Shown: positions 25,305 to 60,699 of the stretch, piece by piece
Layout: the number at the start of each line of letters is the position of its first letter
Numbering within the stretch: the stretch's first letter is position 1
Origin: Sulfolobales archaeon HS-7
Lineage (GTDB): Archaea; Thermoproteota; Thermoprotei_A; Sulfolobales; Sulfolobaceae
Length of the DNA: 64,000 nucleotides
Direction of reading: 5' to 3'
Assembly (NCBI GenBank): GCA_019704295.1
Contig: AP024596.1
Coordinates: 2,016,001 to 2,080,000, forward strand
Program-made: the position numbers and the translations under genes
Notes under the pieces: generated by a model
The model's input: only the letters and a program-made list of their open reading frames with translations
Database searches by the model: none
What the model was told of the DNA's origin: nothing

Positions 25305-26516
25305 TTAGAAGAGAGATGTCTTGTCCTCAAGTATGAGTTCAGTTATTTTTCTGAAATCGGAAATTACCTCATCGGCAATTCCCCTAGCTTCGTTCTTCAT
25401 TTCGTCAGTGATACGGCCATTGGACGATTTCATTTCGATGTTGAGAACTAAGGGATCATCGATAGGTCTGCCGATCTGACCTAAAACCTCTACTTGTACA
25501 TTTGATATATCCTTTACAGTAGTTGCGACTTTATTAGCAATAATCCCCGCAATTACGTTGTACAATTTCCCTACATGATTAACTGGATTTTTGCCTGCAG
25601 TGGCCTCAAGCGACATAGGTCTCATAGGAGTGATTAAACCAGTAGCTCTATTACCCCTCCCTGTCATACCATCATCACCATGCTCTGCTGACGTGCCTGT
25701 TACTGTAAGATAGAAAATTCCCTTGTCCGGTTTGTCACCAGTGTTTATATGTATCCTTATCTCGTTTTCACCTATCTTCTTCTCAGTCATCCTTAATATC
25801 TCTTCCTTGACCTCAGACTTAACTTCAACATAATGGGAGGCGTCCTCAATAAGTGGAGATATAGTAGCCATCGCGATAGTTAGATCTATTTCCTTTCCTT
25901 TCCTAAGTCCCATTACTTTTACATCTTCACCAACTTCAGGGTGCTTTCTTTTAAATTCTGGTGAATTCAAGAGCCTCTCTGTACTCAAAACCAGTTCTTC
26001 CAGTCTGGAGAGAGGGGCAAAACCTACACCGAAGCTAGTATCATTGGAGAGCGGAACCTTCTTTCCCTCGTCGAAAATCCCTATTAGATCTGTTGAACCC
26101 TTACCTATTTTATAATCAATAACTAGATGTTTTTCCGGATCTAGGTATCTGAAATTATCCTTAATCCATTCCTTTACAGTTTCAATAATTATAGTCCCCA
26201 CAGGTATTGATTCAGAACCTTTATCGCGTACTTCAGTAGTAGCTCTTCCAGACACTATTATATATATGGGATGTATTACCTCTCCTCCTTTAAACATAGG
26301 CGTGGCTTGTCCGCCCACAACTAGCGTCTTATCTAGGTTATGATGAAGTATTACTCCATACCTTTTTAGATAGTACTTTGATAAACCTCTGCTTGCGACT
26401 TCTGAAGCACTGTCCGCAATATAGTCTGGATGTCCTGTACCTTTTCTCTCGACAAGCTCGACTTCAAGTTGGTTAACGTCCTTCCAATTAGCCTCTTGTA
26501 CTACTATATTTTTCAT
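25305..26516 (-). CDS. mat: Archaeal S-adenosylmethionine synthetase
   Basis: [25 protein letters not shown]. Confidence 0.95.
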
Positions 26517-28204: not shown

Positions 28205-28897
28205 CTACTCATACTTACTGACAATCATTGCGTGATCTTTATCGTATGGATCAAGGTCGATCACACGCCTCACATTTAGTCCTCCTTCCTTTAATTTATT
28301 TGATTCCTCCTCGAAAACCCTTTGCGGATCTTTAGTAACATCTATACTCCTTGATTTAACGGCTAACAATAACTCTCCTCCTTTCTCAAGGAAATACTTC
28401 GCATTGTTTAAGGCTATTTCGGCCTGATTTGGCTGAGCCACATCAATATATATAACGTCCACTTCTTCAACCATAGTTCTATATCTATTTGGAAACCTAG
28501 CGTCCTCTAGTATGGGTATCAAATTTTGTCTGTGTTGCGAAACAAGTAAAAACTCCCTCATAACCCTAGGAGAGAATTCGACACTGTAAATTCGACCCTC
28601 CTTTCCCACTATATCTGAAAGGTGACTAGCAGTTGTTCCCGACGCAACACCAAGATAGAGAACCACACTGCCCCTTCTAAATGGGGAATAATCAAGTCCG
28701 TTCATTATCGCCCCGGCGAATTTGCTTCTAAAGGCATTCCACTCCCTATATTCTACGCCATCGTAGTTTATGAGGCGTTCTCCATAGACTCTATGCCCTG
28801 GGGCAAAATTCTTAGTACATAATTTGTAAGTTCCGTCATTATAAGAGCACTTAAAGATTCCTTCCATAACTTGTTGTACGTTTACGACTTCTGACAC
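28205..28897 (-). CDS. flpA: Fibrillarin
   Basis: VYGE, WNAFRSK, YLGVASGTT, DVAQPNQA. Confidence 0.96.
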   Translation of the reverse strand: MSEVVNVQQVMEGIFKCSYNDGTYKLCTKNFAPGHRVYGERLINYDGVEYREWNAFRSKFAGAIMNGLDYSPFRRGSVVLYLGVASGTTASHLSDIVGKEGRIYSVEFSPRVMREFLLVSQHRQNLIPILEDARFPNRYRTMVEEVDVIYIDVAQPNQAEIALNNAKYFLEKGGELLLAVKSRSIDVTKDPQRVFEEESNKLKEGGLNVRRVIDLDPYDKDHAMIVSKYE

Positions 28898-28899
28898 TG

Positions 28900-30114
28900 T
28901 TATCTACCTCTTCCCCTTTTCCTCCTTTTCTCCTTACGTTCTTTTCTTTCCTCCTTAATCTCTTTTTTGGGAGGTGGATTCGGATATTTGTCTCTGATTT
29001 CTTGTATTCTTTTCTCCAACTGCTGACGTAATATACCTCCCACATATTTTCCAGAATATGCGTCTATTTTAGCAGCAGTTGCTAGTTTGGTTGCTAGCGC
29101 ACGCGCCATTTTACCTCTTTGCCAACGCGGCGCATTATGAATTGCAGGATATTGGAATATTATGCCATGTTTCGGAGGGCGCGTACCTGACCTTAGTGAA
29201 CGAAATAAAGCCTTCTCAGCACCTAATACTTGTATAGTACTTGCAGGCATTTTTGCAAGTTCCTTAAGACTTCCGGCAAGACTTAAAAGCCTTGCAGCAA
29301 GGGAGGAACCCACGAGGGACGTAACGTTGGGAGCTATTTCTTTCATTATAGATTCCGCATATTCTGTAAGTTCGTCTCTTAAGGAGAACAGCGAGAGTAT
29401 ATTTTCCGCCATAACCTTTAATGAACTCAAATCGTCTTCCGATAAATTAGCTCCGAGGCTTCGTTTAGCGGCTTCTGCTATCTTCTTCGCTTTTGCGTCG
29501 GGAATACCTAGCTTAGCAATTTTTTCTTCGCTTATGTTATCCCTCTCTCCAAAATCTCGTATTATTTGACTATATAGCTTATGATCCTCTATGAGCTTAT
29601 CGAGTTCTGGGAAATGAATACTGTACCATTCCCTCAACCTCTCTGAGAAGAGGTTTATGGTCTTATCTATGTCGTCTATGGCCCTGATTGCCTGTACTGC
29701 TAGTTGGTCCCTATTCTCGGCCGCCTGTCTAAGTTTCCTCCTTGTAAGCTCTGTTGCTACGTTATTTATAAATTCAAAGAGCTTTTCTTCAGATTCCGCA
29801 AAGCCAGTTTTCAGGGCAATTTGTACTAATTCTCCTCTAAACGTCTGAGCACCTATGCTGTTCGGTTCATATAATATTTTAACGCCTAACTTACTTAGCC
29901 CTGATGAAACTTCCTCGTTTTCTAAGACGTATTCATCTACCTTAATTTTACTTATGAGTTCGACTGTTGAAGGTAACGGTTCGCCTTTTAATTCATTGAG
30001 GAGTGCTTCAACTACTTTTCCAACATCTTCTGTATTTTTTACATAATCTATTAGCTCTCCTTGTTCATTAAAGGCGAATGACCCTATTGCGTGTTCGGCA
30101 ATGTAAACTCGCAT
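28900..30114 (-). CDS. nop5: Nop5 (Nop56/58)
   Basis: [30 protein letters not shown]. Confidence 0.96.
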
Positions 30115-40868: not shown

Positions 40869-40930
40869 TCGAGGAGTGTACTCATAATTTTTTATCTCCC
40901 TCTCTAGTTTATTATTCAGTGTTAAATATT

Positions 40931-41380
40931 ATGGCCAGAGCAGACAGAGTTTATCAACTGATTAAGCTTCTCCTTTACGTTGCCAAAGAGGAGGGAGTTG
41001 AGGTTACTGCAACGAAGCTACAGAAGATATTCTTCTTACTTGAGAAGGAGGGGGGAGTTGATTTAGGCCTTGAATTTACGCCTTGGTTCTTCGGCCCCTA
41101 CTCAAGTCTGCTTCAAGACTATATTGATAAGCTAATCGAAAAGGGAGACGTGAGCGTCGAGGAGGAAGAGGTAATAGACGTCTTGAGCGGTCAGGTAGTC
41201 GGTTATAAGAGGGTTTACGTCCTCAGTTCAGACGCTAGTCAGGACGATAAAAGCATCGAGAAGTTCTTTAGAAAGTGGGTTAAGATGAGTAGAAGTGAGA
41301 TTTTAAATTACGTTTACAGAAAGTATCCGGAATACGCTAAGTATTCCCTGATTAGGGATAAGATTTTTGGGAGTCCTTAA
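40931..41380 (+). CDS. Panacea/SocA (DUF4065)-like antitoxin
   Basis: TKLQKIFFL ... F.PWFFGPYS ... YVYRKYPEY. Confidence 0.7.
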   Translation: MARADRVYQLIKLLLYVAKEEGVEVTATKLQKIFFLLEKEGGVDLGLEFTPWFFGPYSSLLQDYIDKLIEKGDVSVEEEEVIDVLSGQVVGYKRVYVLSSDASQDDKSIEKFFRKWVKMSRSEILNYVYRKYPEYAKYSLIRDKIFGSP

Positions 41381-42336
41381 TGAGTAAAAAGAGGAAATCG
41401 TTTTTCGCGAAATTTATAAGTGACTCTTTAACATTTTTTGATGCTGCGCTCAGCATATACGAAAAACTACAAAGCGGCAAGAAGCCGTTCTTTTCTGACA
41501 TAAGGTCCTTAGAGTATCAAAAGATTTTCAACCTTGCAAGATCTTTCGAGACTTTGAGCAAAGCCTGTCTCTCCGCGTACGGTGGATTAATTGCATATCC
41601 AGCACTCTTAGTAGCCAAAGCCAGAAAAGGAAGCCAGATAGCTCTCAGGCACGAGCAGAAGGTTATAAATTACCTAAGAGAATTAGTAAAATAATCTTTA
41701 GACCTGAAAAATATTAAGAAAAAACTAAGTCACGACCCCGTAGGTAAGTCCCAAATTCCAGTCCTTTTGATAGCTACAGCAAAGTTCTTAAGACAATTAG
41801 GGGAAAAGGAAATTGCGGAATTATATGAGCAAGTTGCAGATTATTTGAAACAGAGCAACAAGACTTACATGGAGTTGCTGGAGATAAGAAAGAGAGTGGT
41901 GTCTTCAATTCAGCTAAAGGAAGTTCATAAGCAGCTTCTCGATATCATCGAAAAGTGTTTACAATCAGGGTCTGAGGATGAGATTTGCAAAAACTTGCCC
42001 AACGACGCCGAGAAAATATTCGGCGTCTACAAGGAGAAGCCTTACCTAGTTGATCAGATACTAACGATACTGGACTTAGGAATTCAAGAGATGCTTGGCG
42101 CCATGGTTTATACGGCCTATCTAGCTAAGGCCGCTGCAATTGCGGACTATAGCGCAGGTAGGGATGAAAACGATGAAAAATACTTAGGGGAGGTGAGAGA
42201 TCATCAGAAGGAAATTATTGAATTTATGATGAAATACGCACAAATAAACAAGGAGTTTGTGAAGAGCGACGAGGTGGACGAATTTATGAGGGAAGTTGAG
42301 GATAATGCCAGACAACACTTGTCCGGGGAGAGCTGA
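41380..42336 (+). pseudogene. HEPN-like protein split by one in-frame TAA (41692)
   Basis: 41380-41694 and 41767-42336 share a frame; ARSFETLSKA...KLSHD pattern. Confidence 0.55.
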
Positions 42337-42593: not shown

Positions 42594-42743
42594 ATGAAGA
42601 TTGTTGACGATAAGGATGGTGAAAGGTTCTTAGAGTTAGAGAACGAACAAGATATAGACGAATTTTTTGATGCCATAACAAGGAGGGCTAAAGAAAAAGC
42701 TAATGACCGTAAACCTTCTTATGAGACCCAACCTCCTAAATAA
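42594..42743 (+). CDS. 49-aa acidic protein, putative antitoxin
   Basis: Hand translation: MKIVDDKDGERFLELENEQDIDEFF...KPSYETQPPK; homolog at 52693. Confidence 0.55.
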   Translation: MKIVDDKDGERFLELENEQDIDEFFDAITRRAKEKANDRKPSYETQPPK

Positions 42744-43008
42744 ATACGATACAGTTTATTGAGTCGACACTGTAAAGCATTCTTATATCACCCGTAACTT
42801 CTATGGAAAACATAGAATTCCCATACTTATCCTTTCCCAGTTTCTCCCTGGCGTATTTAAAAGGGTCACTTTTGAGTAATTTAATATTCTCTTTAATCAT
42901 ATTTAATATCTTGACGTTAAGGAACTCATAAAAAACATACTCCGCTAGCTCATCCAAACTCCTAACCTTCTTCCTGCTAACTCTTATCTTCTACTCCTTA
43001 CGAACCAT
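42700..43008 (-). pseudogene. RelE/ParE-like toxin pseudogene
   Basis: Homolog of 52802-53107 with TAG at two Trp positions. Confidence 0.75.
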
Positions 43009-43082
43009 AATAAAAGAAATATAATGCTTATTTAAAAATATTTTTCTATTAGTTTAATATCTCATTATGAATAATAGTTCTG

Positions 43083-43385
43083 CTACCATTTATTTCTTCT
43101 AGATCTTTTTGTCTTAGTTTTAACTGGGTGTGCTGAATTCTTTAACGCTTCATAGTCCTTTATCCTTAATAAAGCCTCTTCAGGTTCAGTTACTCCTTTC
43201 AGCATCTCTGCAAGACCGTTTTCACCTATGTAATTCAGCCAAGAGAGGATATGACCTTCTTTCAAGTGGTATCGAGGTGCTGCAGGACCCTCTTTGGACA
43301 GTCTTTCCACTTCCTTTTCCAACTCTTTCACGTTATACGCAACTCCTGTTACCTTATTATATGAAATAGAACGGCCCCAGATCAC
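43083..43385 (-). CDS. Hypothetical plasmid protein
   Basis: GVAYNVKEL..YHLKEGHI..WL; decayed paralog at about 53230-53510. Confidence 0.6.
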   Translation of the reverse strand: MIWGRSISYNKVTGVAYNVKELEKEVERLSKEGPAAPRYHLKEGHILSWLNYIGENGLAEMLKGVTEPEEALLRIKDYEALKNSAHPVKTKTKRSRRNKW

Positions 43386-43720
43386 TCACTTCCGTTATTC
43401 TGCTTTTTAAAAACCCTTAGACTGTGGAAAAGAAATGGGGGATAATGTATTCGGAATCGATATAAGACGATTCAGCTTTCTCTTCATAGCGAATAATAAT
43501 AATCTTAGCGTTTGTAGCAAGTTTCGCAAATATAAAAATACCTGAGCAGAACACTTCCGTTCAAGTTGGGACATTGACGCAAAATGAAAATTACACACAA
43601 CCTCAGCTGTTCAAGTATGCATATAACAAAACGATAACATTAGCTCCAGTTCTTTTAGATCTACAGGTGAGGGCAGGATAGTTCGCATATCTTTTTAACT
43701 AAACATCTCAATAGGGAGAG

Positions 43721-43849
43721 AACGTCATTTTTCCCTAACCTAGTGATGAAGGGGGCAAAAAAGCCACGGGCTAAGTTTTTTCCCATTTCCCCCTGACACG
43801 TGATGAAAGACCTCTACGCTGAGGGGAAACGAACATGCCCCCTGATGTT
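43721..43849 (+). ncRNA. Box C/D-like sRNA 1
   Basis: C GTGATGA 43743, D' CTGA 43793, C' GTGATGA 43800, 12-nt guide, D CTGA 43819; TTTCCC/GGGAAA stem; TATA-like box and T-rich tail. Confidence 0.6.
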
Positions 43850-43863
43850 TATTTTCTTCTTAG

Positions 43864-44043
43864 TCATTTATACTTTTCTAAGTCTATGTTGTTCTTCTTA
43901 GCGTATTCCTTCAAACCCAGGTCAAGGATCTCGTCCGCTACATCTGCATACCTCTTCCCCACATCTACAGCTATCCTCTTTATGATCTTAGCGTATTGAG
44001 GGCTTACCCAGAGCTGTTCCTTGTTTGTAGGGTGAGATACCAT
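43864..44043 (-). CDS. Ribbon-helix-helix (CopG-like) protein (absent from ORF track)
   Basis: Hand translation: MVSHPTNKEQLWVSPQYAKIIKRIAVDVGKRYADVADEILDLGLKEYAKK... Confidence 0.65.
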   Translation of the reverse strand: MVSHPTNKEQLWVSPQYAKIIKRIAVDVGKRYADVADEILDLGLKEYAKKNNIDLEKYK

Positions 44044-44207
44044 TTATATCGTTATTCAAAAATACCTATTTAGATGTTTAAAAGCTTTACTGTTTAGATA
44101 AAGTGTAGAGGTTACTATAAGAACTTTCCATATACTATTTGTAGAGTGATATTAACCAAACTGAAAGAAAATCAGAAATACTTAATATCCCTAAATAGAG
44201 AACTATA

Positions 44208-44283
44208 ATGGGGACGGGTCAAAAGATGAATGGAACGACGGTTGACACATGATAAGCCAGTTACGAGCTAACCCGTCCCTCAT
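44208..44283 (+). ncRNA. Box C/D-like sRNA 2
   Basis: Stem GGGACGGG/CCCGTCCC enclosing AAGATGA-N12-TTGA-CAC-ATGATAA-N12-CTAA; TTAATAT upstream, T-tract downstream. Confidence 0.5.
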
Positions 44284-44439
44284 TTTTATCTTTCTTCTCG
44301 GAGGTAAAAAGCGTTACGTAAACTGGGGAGTTTGGGTCGTTCACCCGTTAATTGCAAATTCACTTTATTTTATTAGTTTGAAATTAACTATTTCATTGTG
44401 GATTGGTAATACTAAATAAGGGAAGAGCCGGAAATAATA

Positions 44440-47680: not shown

Positions 47681-48048
47681 GATAGTGCCCAATGTGCAAC
47701 AAATGTTATTTACTATATTAACTAATTATAAGATATAAAAATAATTAAATCTACGTTGTATAATCAGGATGATAGTACGGGGGAATTACGGGAAATTAAA
47801 CCCCATTGCCGACTTCCTAGGCTTAAAAATATTCGGCTATACCCTCTGCTAACTTTTAACTCGTAGAACTGAAAACCTCTTTTTAGCTTTTATTGCTAAG
47901 AAATATATGGTTACTTTTGCTTACTATTAATAAACTTATTTTATATTACTGTCATACTTGTAATTAAGCGAATTTAATTCTAAAGAGACGTGTTTATAAC
48001 TTTTTACTTTATTTAGTTATTCCCTTTAATTACACATTGGACACTGTC
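47681..48048 (-). mobile_element. MITE (family A) truncating the integrase
   Basis: GATAGTGCCCAATGTG ... ATTACACATTGGACACTGTC. Confidence 0.78.
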
Positions 48049-48532
48049 AAGTGAGAGTGAGAAGCCGAAATCCCTCATTGCATATTTTATGTGTCTGAGC
48101 CTTTCTTCTCTAGTCGCTTTGCTCTTTTGTTCCAGAATTTTATCAAACAGCTTTAGATCCTCCTCAGTAACCACGTAACTATTCGTATTCTGTCTTACAT
48201 AATCTCTTAAGAATCTGTTCAGCATCATAAAAAGCAAAGAACGAAACTGAGGATCCTCAACTGCAGTATTCACTACTTTTAACAAATCGTTTATGTCAGC
48301 CTTCTCTATCTTCTTACCGTATACTATTCTCGCAATTTCGTCAGGGGCTAGAAACTGCAGCACTTTCTCTAGGAACTCTTTCGGGGTCTCCCTCAACCCT
48401 TTCTTATATCGCCACCCTGTAGCTTTTGAAATCCCCCATTTGCTCATAAGTTATCCCTTTCTCTTCAGTAACATATGTAAATAGCTGAATTTTTTGCTCA
48501 TTTGTGAGCTTATCTATATCTATTATTGCCAT
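48049..48532 (-). pseudogene. pNOB8-type tyrosine integrase, N-terminal part
   Basis: MAIIDIDKLTNEQKIQLF..GISKATGWRYKKG..FLAPDEIARI; +1 frameshift in a G run near 48435; C-terminal catalytic part missing. Confidence 0.8.
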
Positions 48533-48626
48533 AATATTAATTTCTACCTCTGGTTTAAGATGGTTTCCATTTTTCCTAGATGGTTTCCGACCTAACCCAC
48601 CTCTTTTTCAATTTAATTAAAAATTA

Positions 48627-48670
48627 GTGCCGCGGCCGGGATTTGAACCCGGGCCACAGGCTTGAGAGGC
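48627..48670 (-). repeat. att site: 3' half of tRNA-Glu(CTC)
   Basis: GCCTCTCAAGCCTGTGGCCCGGGTTCAAATCCCGGCCGCGGCAC; no 5' half; upstream of the integrase. Confidence 0.88.
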
Positions 48671-52692: not shown

Positions 52693-52845
52693 ATGAGAAT
52701 TGAAGATAAGGACGAGAAAGGCGAGGGTTACTTAGTTATTGAAAGTAAGGAAGATTTTAAGAAGTTTAAGGAGGACCTACTCAGACTGGCAAGGGAAAAA
52801 GCTAAGGCCCGTAAGCCATCTTATGAGACCCAACCTCCCAAATAA
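52693..52845 (+). CDS. Small protein, putative antitoxin
   Basis: Homolog of 42594-42743. Confidence 0.55.
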   Translation: MRIEDKDEKGEGYLVIESKEDFKKFKEDLLRLAREKAKARKPSYETQPPK

Positions 52846-53107
52846 ACACGATACAGTTTTTTGGATCAGCACTATAAAGTATCCTTATATCACCCGTAAC
52901 CTCTATGGAAAACATGGGATTTCCATACTTATCCTTTCCCAGTTTCTCTCTGGAGTATTTGAAAGGGTTTTCCTGTAATAGTTCTAGTTTCTCTGAAATA
53001 AGCATTATCAGCTTATCATTATACGTATCCGTAGCATACTCTAAAAACTCTCTGTAACTCTTTACCTTCCTCATCATGAACTTCAATTCCCAATCCTTAC
53101 AAACCAC
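52802..53107 (-). CDS. RelE/ParE-like toxin
   Basis: L.ENPF..., SIEVTGDIRILY, FIWEVGSH...Y. Confidence 0.75.
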   Translation of the reverse strand: MVCKDWELKFMMRKVKSYREFLEYATDTYNDKLIMLISEKLELLQENPFKYSREKLGKDKYGNPMFSIEVTGDIRILYSADPKNCIVFIWEVGSHKMAYGP

Positions 53108-53229
53108 AATAAATGAAATAGAAAAATGATTTAAAAACTTTTCTCTTTTCGTTTAATATCTCATCAGGAATAATAGTTGTGAAAAGTGAAGTGGCGTTCG
53201 TGATTCTGTCCTTCCTGATATTTTACTCC

Positions 53230-53510
53230 CCGATAAAATCCAGGGCTCCTTTTCACTTCTTCCTCCCGCCCCTCCTTCTCTTCTGTGCAGTGCCCATGCT
53301 CTTTAGCATTCTGTACTCCTCTATTCTGGTGATCGTTTCTCTCACATCAGTGACTCCTTTCAACTTCTCCACTAACCCTTTCTCGCCCACGTAACTCAAC
53401 CACGTCACTATATAGGCTTACCTCAGGTGGTACTCGACGCAAGCGAGGTCCTCCTTAATATAGCCTCGTCATCTCGTCCTTGAGCTCTTCCACGTTGTGG
53501 GCTACGCCGC
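53230..53510 (-). pseudogene. Decayed paralog of 43083-43385
   Basis: GVAHNVEEL...WLSYVGEKGLVEKLKGVT with frameshifts. Confidence 0.6.
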
Positions 53511-58189: not shown

Positions 58190-58756
58190 CTTAAGAAACA
58201 GTCTGAATAAAGATACACCTTTTTTATAATATTCTTCATTTATTCTTACTTTTTCTGGCGGATGACTCCAAAATATCCAGTGTAATAGTAGTCCAAGTTT
58301 ATTCTTCTCTAGTTTAATCGGAGTATACTTTCGTCCTGTGATTTCATAAGCGAAAATATCAGCTCTTCTCTCTTCATTTTTCTTACGCCACTTTACTATG
58401 ATGAACATAACAAAAGCCGTCAGCCAGTTCCATGGTAAGCTTAGCAAAAATAGGGGAAAGATTACTACTGATGTCAGTAAAGGATCAAGTAAGAAATTAT
58501 CATGGATTAAATGTCCCAGTTCATGATAATATGCCGCCTTATCTTCTTCAATTCCTCTATAGAGAATTTTCTTTCCATTTAACATCTTATAGGAAAAATA
58601 ACCGCGTGCGGGACACTCATAAAACTCGATATTAAAGAGGGATCGCTTAACGCAGATAGACTGTTTAGCGTCTCTATATGCCCTAATCTCACTTTGTAGC
58701 ATTAGAAATAGAAATGCTCCCGTATAAGTTATTACTACAAGTATGGTTTCCATCAT
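58172..58756 (-). CDS. M48-like Zn metalloprotease
   Basis: HELGH, EERRAD.FA, SHPP. Confidence 0.75.
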   Translation of the reverse strand: MMETILVVITYTGAFLFLMLQSEIRAYRDAKQSICVKRSLFNIEFYECPARGYFSYKMLNGKKILYRGIEEDKAAYYHELGHLIHDNFLLDPLLTSVVIFPLFLLSLPWNWLTAFVMFIIVKWRKKNEERRADIFAYEITGRKYTPIKLEKNKLGLLLHWIFWSHPPEKVRINEEYYKKGVSLFRLFLKSLFSN

Positions 58757-58786
58757 TTTTAACAGTTTTAAAAAATAGAGGAAGAA

Positions 58787-60699
58787 TGAGCTATCCTAAC
58801 CACCATACTATACAGAGAATGAGTGTGTTAATCGTAGGAATAATATTAGTGCTAGGAATAGTAGCAATGCTTGCAAATTATAAGCCCTCTCAGACTGGAC
58901 CTATCGCTATCCAAAATCCTTCACCGACGATAACAACACCTCCCCTGAACGTCACTCCTCCTAAACTGAACATAACTAATTTCACTGCGACTTACAGTTT
59001 TACTAATGCAGTAGAATCGCTTAATGCTACAGACATCTATACTTTCAATTCTACTAAGTTGCTTGAGTTTGAATACGCATATAACCCGCTTGCGTCGACT
59101 GTAGCTGATATACTTTCACTTTCAGCTAGCCAGGTAACGCCGTGGACTTATTCTGAATTATATAACATTTTAGACTCTAAATACACTCATTGGACTTCTA
59201 CTAGAACAGTGTCAATGTACTATTATCCGATGAACATGAGCATGAACACGATATATCTGAATTTTGCATTTCAAACTAATCCTCAGTTTGTTAATGCTTA
59301 TGAACAATTAAATAGAAATTATCCGTTTCCACCTTCAGACAATATCACGGTAAACTCCCCAGTTTACCGCATAATTAACAAAACTTCTGTAACAACTAGC
59401 GTAAATGTTCAATTTAGCAATTATACATATTTAATATATAATTATACTTACAAGAGCGGCAATACGGTATATGAATATTTATATTATGACTCGTCCGTAG
59501 AGGGATACGCTTATCTTTATGCTAATAATCAACTGATAAATTCTCAATATTTCTATTATAACTTCTACTGGTGGGGTGGGAGTTACACTAACACGCTCTA
59601 CGGTGAAGTAACAGTTCCACCTGGCATGATGAAACAAGTTTACGCAGATTACACTATCTTAATGTCACCTGGTTATGGTTTTCAAGAAAAACAGCAGGGG
59701 AATGTAACTTACTACATTTACAAGTATTATCCAGCAGGGCCATACGTATCAATGTTAGGTTATATGTTTAATTGGTACGAATATAATGTATTGTTACAGA
59801 TAAAAATTCTAGTTTATAATGGTAGTAATCCAGTAACTTACGTTAATAACCAGACCTATAACTCTAGAACTATTAACGTAATAGTTTCATATAATGTATG
59901 GAGTTCAGACCCTAAAACTTATACAAATACTATAAAAACACTAGACCATATAATGTTTTTAAAGTATAATTTAACTAGAATATGGCACGCAGGGAGTATA
60001 ACAATTAACCCGACCTGTTATATACAACAAATCGGAAATGCCGTTAATTATTATCTTAATTTTAACATACAAAATGATATTATCGAACCGCCTTCATACA
60101 TTTTCCATCCAGTTCATCAACTGAACGAAACGACAGTGCTGCAGTGGAGCTACTTCCTCAATAACTATATTGTTGTCAAGGGGCTGTATAACGCAGTGCA
60201 CGAAAACATAGACGAATTCAATTATATCCTTCCACAGTTTGTAACATCTGTCTATAAAGAGAATCTAACATTGCGTACGATAACTATAGCTAGCTTTATT
60301 GAGCCATGGAATGTTTCCCAGGTGACCCTAAACGTATCTGGCGTCTTAGCAAAAAGTAATATGATCTTTATTCCAGTCAATATAACACCTAATACTTCAT
60401 ATAGTATAATCTATTCCGCGCTGGGATCTATTTATACAATACCCAACGTGACTTTACTAAGCTATGAATGGAATAATATGACGGGATCTGGGTACTTTCC
60501 ACCTTTAGTCGAGAACGAACTGTACAACGGAACTATTCCACCTCCAATCTATGCTCCATTCATGAAAAATATAGTGTTGAACTACGGATACTATTGGCCA
60601 TATCGACTACCTTATGTAGAATTTTCGATTCAACAATTACAGAAAAATTACGAATATTGGTACAACCCCGCATGGCCTGGCTGGTTCCCAATAAGCTAA
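58787..60699 (+). CDS. Membrane-anchored extracellular protein
   Basis: N-terminal TM; Y/N/T-rich with many NxS/T sequons. Confidence 0.7.

Follow-up and report, generated by a model that had tools for sequence, protein, structure and literature searches.

Organization of the locus

The window analysed here is a 64,000-nt stretch of the genome of Sulfolobales archaeon HS-7 (AP024596.1, positions 2,016,001–2,080,000). Two box C/D-type RNA genes, designated RNA1 and RNA2, lie on its forward strand on either side of a gene for a 59-aa RHH-like protein on the other strand, and the features of the locus are listed in Table 1. Both RNAs sit in the decayed remnant of a pNOB8-type conjugative plasmid within this Sulfolobaceae chromosome. 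The neighbouring genes match proteins of Sulfolobales conjugative plasmids, and the cassette is bounded by what we take to be the recombination motif of such plasmids. Since the RNAs lie outside the att site, which adjoins a truncated integrase, they belong to an older, broken remnant outside the neighbouring integrated element. A gene pair at the edge of the remnant (40919–42336) has an in-frame stop near 41692, and its first gene resembles an ORF of pYN01. A RelE-like gene and an adjoining gene of ~100 codons are present twice, in the remnant (42703–43385) and in the adjacent element (52802–53456).

Table 1 Features of the RNA1–RNA2 locus, host machinery genes and related plasmid loci (window coordinates unless a contig is given; E. 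coli numbering in brackets).
Feature	Position	Strand	Remarks
Host fibrillarin	28205–28867	-	Adjoins Nop5
Host Nop5	28900–30114	-	Machinery that the guides would borrow
Broken 5' fragment of a conserved plasmid gene	43392–43686	+	Joined to the RNA1 leader; intact homolog at 58714–60699
Damaged RNA1 promoter	43676–43701	+	Conserved BRE-TATA replaced at a junction near 43687; weaker T-rich box at 43692–43701
RNA1, long box C/D-type RNA	43711–43860	+	In the slot 3' of, and convergent with, the RHH-like gene; ends inferred from homologs
RNA1 boxes	C 43743–49, D' 43793–96, C' 43800–06, D 43819–22	+	Exact matches
RNA1 D' region, 43 nt	43750–43792	+	43750–57 pairs with 43836–43; 43786–92 pairs with 43823–29
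RNA1 D guide, 12 nt	43807–43818	+	
59-aa RHH-like protein gene	43864–44043	-	Fold suggested
RNA2 TATA-like box	44180–44188	+	1 mismatch to consensus; ~29 nt 5' of the predicted start
RNA2, double-guide box C/D RNA of plasmid family A	44209–44281	+	Inside a covarying terminal stem
RNA2 8-bp terminal stem	44211–44218/44272–44279	+	Fold z -2.2
RNA2 boxes	C 44223–29, D' 44242–45, C' 44249–55, D 44268–71	+	Box D degenerate (CUAA)
RNA2 D' guide, 12 nt	44230–44241	+	Pairs with host 16S 1361–1371 (1403–1413); +5 = C1407
RNA2 D guide, 12 nt	44256–44267	+	Pairs with host 16S 1445–1451 (1495–1501); +5 = U1498
Presumed recombination motif of Sulfolobales conjugative plasmids	44319–44334	+	3' of RNA2; bounds the cassette
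Integrase of the remnant, truncated, with the left att of the adjacent integrated plasmid	48028–48660	-	tRNA-derived repeat from 48627
Loci of a further plasmid C/D family (D guide to U470)	L007:1526–1573, L333:1517–1564, L335 near 1519, L318 near 1125		

The 59-aa protein is ~90% identical in plasmid-type loci of five genera. Its assignment as RHH in the sequence-only reading is suggested by ESM Atlas neighbours (at 0.92–0.93), which include RHH_3 and CopB clusters, and is supported neither by profiles, with no match in Pfam, NCBIfam or PHROG, nor by an AlphaFold monomer, which is one long helix rather than RHH (pTM 0.44); a PDB sequence search showed no RHH fold either. A CRISPR spacer of a Saccharolobus genome (L009:1501–1545) matches the gene at window positions 43982–44027 with 89% identity, and the plasmid lineage is thus a CRISPR target. 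Most of the ~50 RHH loci examined have a C/D RNA in the slot 40 nt downstream of this gene on the opposite strand, the slot of RNA1, while one lineage has lost it. RNA1 and RNA2 had been regarded as one related pair bracketing the RHH gene. They are, however, members of separate plasmid families, and only some loci have RNAs on both flanks of the gene.

Box architecture of RNA1 and RNA2

The four boxes, the D' region and the D guide previously described for RNA1 proved exact, and the layout of RNA2 within its stem was likewise confirmed. Four-box patterns with 0–1 mismatches occur 9 times in the real genome, compared to 0 in three Markov-4 copies, and RNA1 is one of 3 perfect patterns in the 2.15-Mb genome. 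The boxes of RNA2 contain four mismatches, and its validation comes from near-perfect homologs with that same stem, which encloses perfect boxes in plasmid pB12E5. The changes in boxes C' and D' of RNA2 form a compensatory A-U pair. In the order C, D', C', D and with K-turn-compatible sequence, the boxes are perfect in RNA1 and in most homologs. The two guides of RNA2 and the D guide of RNA1, at 12 nt each, are in the 10–13 nt range of archaeal box C/D sRNAs. Covariation of the terminal stem (both-sided changes in 13 cells; 0 of 500 shuffles) was better than that of slid controls, with the caution that relatedness can inflate such a signal. Conservation of the boxes at homologous loci, which the sequence-only reading had named among its tests, was observed. 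The CAC junction between boxes D' and C' is common to the two RNAs, as had been noted, and is not kept in homologs (CCC, CGC, GGC, TAG and others). Rfam gave no match at gathering score for the window locus and 13 homologous loci, with weak sR-family matches only. The boxes of RNA1 and RNA2 are not a product of chance, and it is highly probable that both are real C/D-type RNA genes.

A TATA-like box had been noted before both RNAs. That of RNA2 was recovered, and its spacing to the predicted start agrees with the contig start of a Saccharolobus homolog (see below). The conserved TATA of RNA1 is gone, and the T-rich box noted in its place is a weaker downstream site. As the BRE-TATA was replaced by the junction with the broken plasmid gene fragment, RNA1 may be silent or may use the weaker box. 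A sigma-70 promoter scan was set aside as not applicable to archaea.

The D' region of RNA1 is rich in G and C and pairs within the molecule, so that only the D guide is free; it is probably structural rather than a guide. Similar self-pairing was found in the pBEU9E1 homolog. For the RNA1 D guide the host offers no credible target (best 8.5 of 10), and no homologs of it were found in 46 family genomes. A 9-bp match to G43 of tRNA-Val(UAC) of a Metallosphaera was rejected as being at chance level.

Complementarity of the RNA2 family to 16S helix 44

RNA2 belongs to family A, of which ~31 distinct variants were found in Sulfolobaceae genomes and metagenomes by pattern and covariance-model searches. 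Almost all of them lie beside plasmid genes. The family A pattern is present in 9 of 46 family genomes and in none from other families of the order, and its distribution is patchy across genera. The metagenome pattern matches listed (80) are mostly chance, and 17 have all four boxes.

The sequence-only reading recognised no rRNA target for the guides. This was wrong for RNA2, whose two guides pair with the two strands of 16S helix 44. The search pattern included the D-guide core, with positions +9, +10 and +11 free, and did not include the D' guide. In 29 of the 33 family A matches, two of which are chance matches, the D' guide pairs over 8 nt or more with the 5' strand of helix 44 (host 16S 1353–1371, E. 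coli 1395–1413). The commonest D' guide is a perfect 11-mer with +5 at U1406. The D' registers slide among variants (1399, 1402, 1403, 1406 and 1407), a behaviour not easily accounted for unless pairing is under selection. With its +5 at U1498, the D guide is complementary to the partner strand at 1495–1502 or beyond (to 1504), over 8–10 nt in relatives. Its free positions fit the 16S sequence as well: +9 is U in 24 of 33 and +11 is C in 32 of 33, and +10 is the pairing U in five variants. The E. coli numbering of the target sites agrees with PMC4644070.

Known double guides target nearby rRNA sites (PMC6009581, PMC4644070), like the D' and D target sites here, which are 84 nt apart. For archaeal C/D guides the usual rule is a minimum of 9 contiguous Watson-Crick pairs with rRNA or tRNA across +5, and a relaxed rule exists for double guides (PMC6009581). 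The commonest form of family A falls within the relaxed rule (11 bp and 8 bp), and the window RNA2 does so as a minority member only (6+4 and 7 bp). Its D' guide forms 10 Watson-Crick pairs with one A·C mismatch, at the best site in 16S and 23S, and its D guide forms 7 contiguous pairs, short of the usual 9. Equally good matches come from 1.8% of shuffled RNA2 guide pairs. Most guides carry mismatches. Judging from these complementarities, the RNA2 family has very probably been selected to pair with helix 44.

In the suggested genome search for exact 12-nt guide complements, D guides matched only themselves and one-mismatch matches were scattered. Two other targets for the RNA2 D guide, tRNA-Thr(CGU), whose loop has a 7-nt match to the guide core, and 23S 2316–2326, were rejected, as each leaves G+8, U+9, the +10 U variants and the partner guide unexplained.

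The host itself has a chromosomal guide to G1408 on the same strand of helix 44, which is identical to the Sac-sR129 guide, and the RNA2 D' site overlaps the site of this guide. For the U1498 guide, neither this genome nor seven archaeal sRNA sets yielded a chromosomal counterpart. The RNA carrying the chromosomal G1408 guide (G000:C1:1933360–1933406, outside the window) has a D' guide that, by eye, seems able to pair with the anti-Shine-Dalgarno 3' end of 16S.

The window copies may be decaying and are probably past their best, with a CUAA box D in RNA2, the loss of the conserved TATA in RNA1 and a broken remnant around both. The finding concerns the family.

Box C/D RNAs on conjugative plasmids

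A box scan of 10 complete plasmids detected 10 four-box RNAs, carried by 7 of them (pKEF9, pB12E5 with two, pBEU9E1 with two, pYN01, pARN3, pTC with two, and pAH1), compared to 0 in three simulations of the same 305 kb. They are unannotated in the plasmid records, whose tables omit RNA genes. The copy of pKEF9 (26463–26510) is the perfect-match version; this laboratory plasmid slows host growth and reaches ~150 copies per cell (PMC4872121). Another plasmid C/D family has a D guide to host 16S U470 (~E. coli 518, in the 530 loop) and, in some members, a D' guide to G1274. Its pB12E5 copy is enclosed in the same stem as the window RNA2, which suggests guide swapping within one scaffold. Most family A RNAs are divergent from a small protein gene other than that of the 59-aa protein, and its Arc-like match raises the possibility of repressor control of the RNA promoter.

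The plasmid RNAs share with archaeal box C/D sRNAs, such as S. acidocaldarius sR129 and sR122 and the double-guide chaperone sRNAs (PMC4644070, PMC6009581), the C/D'/C'/D order, guides of 11–12 nt and an unpaired +1. The two guides on nearby rRNA strands are likewise found in archaeal double-guide sRNAs, and the tRNA targeting by single guides in RNA1-type relatives also has parallels there. Unlike these sRNAs, the plasmid RNAs are borne on conjugative plasmids, have a promoter of their own and a long GC stem, fall in no Rfam family, often pair imperfectly in sliding registers, and include a U1498 target not found in the seven sRNA sets. The mobile features of archaeal C/D RNA genes have been called undiscovered (PMC7994747). 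The pKEF9 and pTC papers make no mention of "box", and a literature search, whose scope excluded two early plasmid genome papers, gave no report of plasmid-encoded archaeal C/D guides. What is new is the carriage by conjugative plasmids and the targets; the C/D guide mode itself is known, and the RNAs are probably such guides.

The sole Nop-domain gene found in the genome is the chromosomal Nop5, and neither the element nor the ten plasmids yielded a Nop5-like gene. C/D-type RNAs of this kind must therefore borrow the host RNP, as the sequence-only reading had proposed for element-encoded guides, in so far as gene content can tell. The host Nop5 and fibrillarin genes are located ~14 kb from the plasmid guides, probably by coincidence.

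Expression and methylation data

The Saccharolobus homolog of RNA2 (L054) appeared in one of four RNA-seq runs as a separate contig (1461–1529), which begins 29 nt past the TATA box and stops where the stem ends. Its depth in that run was 371, compared to 15 upstream, contig depth being a poor measure of level. Another run gave flank depth. X4 and X21 were without cover, which does not argue for absence, and no circular junction was observed. We regard the contig as a hint of expression.

A cryo-EM map of S. solfataricus 16S has Cm at C1402 and none listed at U1406, C1407 or U1498 (PMC11698992 Suppl. Table 3; positions mapped in this analysis), so that a plasmid guide would add marks that the host lacks. 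Um is present at the U1406 position in P. abyssi and T. kodakarensis, both Thermococcales (PMC11698992). Should the mapped S. solfataricus strain carry the expressed homolog, as seems likely, methylation of U1498 is low or absent. Efficient methylation of this residue is doubtful. Methyl transfer as such is a tentative proposition, to which we give slightly less than an even chance.

Possible roles of the plasmid guides

As an overall explanation, the analysis tilts slightly towards modulation of host translation by plasmid guides. Sulfolobales conjugative plasmids would encode stand-alone C/D guides, each with a promoter of its own, a terminal stem and a T-rich end, and these guides would load into the host L7Ae-Nop5-fibrillarin particle. 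The RNA2 family, complementary to both strands at the top of helix 44, would bind pre-16S there before the helix closes and so may delay or alter maturation of the decoding centre. It may also introduce, at U1406 or C1407 and at U1498, partial ribose methylation not made by the host. RNA1-type RNAs would use the D guide only, often against tRNA anticodon loops. Given a family complementary to both strands of the decoding helix, the plasmid is likely to enlist the host's methylation machinery and thereby act on host translation. The most likely effect would be host translation tuned in favour of the plasmid, in the manner of EBV v-snoRNA1. The closest analogue is EBV v-snoRNA1, a C/D guide of a mobile element that uses the borrowed host particle, methylates conserved A-site rRNA residues and impairs 18S maturation (PMC13597479). 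It differs in belonging to a eukaryotic virus and in having proven methylation (18S C621 and 28S U1760) and a phenotype, whereas the present case is an archaeal plasmid with several guide families known from sequence.

That the purpose is modulation, rather than protection or nothing, is a view held at a little below even odds. Equally tentative is a wider proposal, in which the plasmids carry a changeable, protein-free guide repertoire that reprograms host 2'-O-methylation against the decoding apparatus (16S helices 44 and 18 and anticodon positions 35–36), selected to throttle translation or to shield from anti-plasmid nucleases. If modulation is true, it would represent a conflict of plasmid and host waged by RNA modification, the archaeal counterpart of EBV v-snoRNA1, and a route by which guide RNAs could pass between genera.

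An unlikely alternative, although the most probable of the rivals, is protective methylation: 2'-O-methyls on the decoding helix and at tRNA positions 35–36 would shield these RNAs from ribonuclease toxins, either anti-plasmid nucleases of the host or the plasmid's own, and the guides would be counter-defence or antitoxin RNAs. The D guides of RNA1-slot relatives are highly variable and often complement tRNA anticodon loops (+5 at 36 or 35) or the T arm. The anticodon-loop complements among D guides of other plasmid RNAs comprise 11 bp to Gly(UCC), 11 bp to Ala(CGC), 8 bp to Arg(UCU) and 9 bp to Gly(GCC). Guide clusters matching tRNA 35/36 or helix 44 number 7 of 19 against 1.4 expected, for classes defined post hoc and with two weak ties. 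A model for these relatives is SNORD97/SCARNA97, a C/D guide to an anticodon loop whose Cm34 guards tRNA-Met from cleavage by angiogenin (PMC6601510); it is host-encoded and acts at position 34, whereas the plasmid guides point at 35–36. RelE-like genes are frequent neighbours of the plasmid RNAs, but there is no fixed toxin partner and none is annotated beside the pKEF9 copy. RelE-type toxins cut mRNA and are not known to cut helix 44 or the anticodon sites, and ribose methyls at anticodon positions 35 and 36 are expected to hinder decoding, both of which count against protection. The sliding registers also argue that pairing matters more than one protected bond.

It is less probable still that the RNAs are cargo that is neutral or almost so, C/D RNAs of host origin that are carried along in recombination-motif cassettes and drift, with any methylation incidental. 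The many mismatched or orphan guides, RNA1 included, would fit such drift, as would the G1408 guide that the host already has on this strand. The long inverted repeats and the isolation from genes resemble the MITE-like sRNAs of Pyrobaculum calidifontis, C/D RNAs with flanking inverted repeats in unstable regions far from genes (PMC6009581). Those number ~15 in the chromosome, their internal boxes are degenerate, and they are orphans or have tRNA targets that are not conserved (PMC6009581). The RNA2 family, by contrast, has 1–2 copies per plasmid, intact internal boxes and a conserved rRNA target, and dispersed copies were not seen, with one covariance-model match to the family in this genome. 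Against drift, the boxes, the stem and the complementarity to helix 44 are kept across genera as registers shift, 7 of 10 compact plasmids retain such genes, and the U1498 guide has no chromosomal counterpart in the genome and sRNA sets searched.

A decoy function is very unlikely. Here the RNAs would titrate L7Ae or Nop5, or compete with the host G1408 and C1402 guides, and thereby lower normal modification. The copy number of pKEF9, the overlap of the RNA2 D' site with that of the host G1408 guide, and the perfect boxes and sequestered D' region of RNA1 would all suit a decoy, but titration would not require the guide sequence to be conserved, and at U1498 no competing host guide was found. 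DNA targeting of the TIGR or IS110 type by an element-encoded Nop-domain protein, although it too would involve dual-spacer box C/D-like RNAs on mobile elements (PMC12045711), is extremely improbable and largely refuted: TIGR-Tas needs its own Nop-domain Tas protein, arrays and DNA targets on opposite strands, none of which was found here, where the genes are single, the only Nop-domain gene is the host Nop5, the boxes are of K-turn type, both guides match the same (RNA-sense) strand 84 nt apart, and self-targets in the plasmids or the element reach 7–10 nt at most, a length judged to be at chance level.

Further C/D RNA loci

A phage collection gave no match, and no family A or RNA1-type RNA was found in viral contigs. 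Clusters of 2–3 different C/D RNA genes within ~500 bp were observed in pTC-like plasmids (L011/L056, L318 and L044:19018–19229). Two IMG/VR contigs of ~277–279 kb have a perfect four-box pattern with a terminal stem (L046:1778–1828 and L047:12567–12617).
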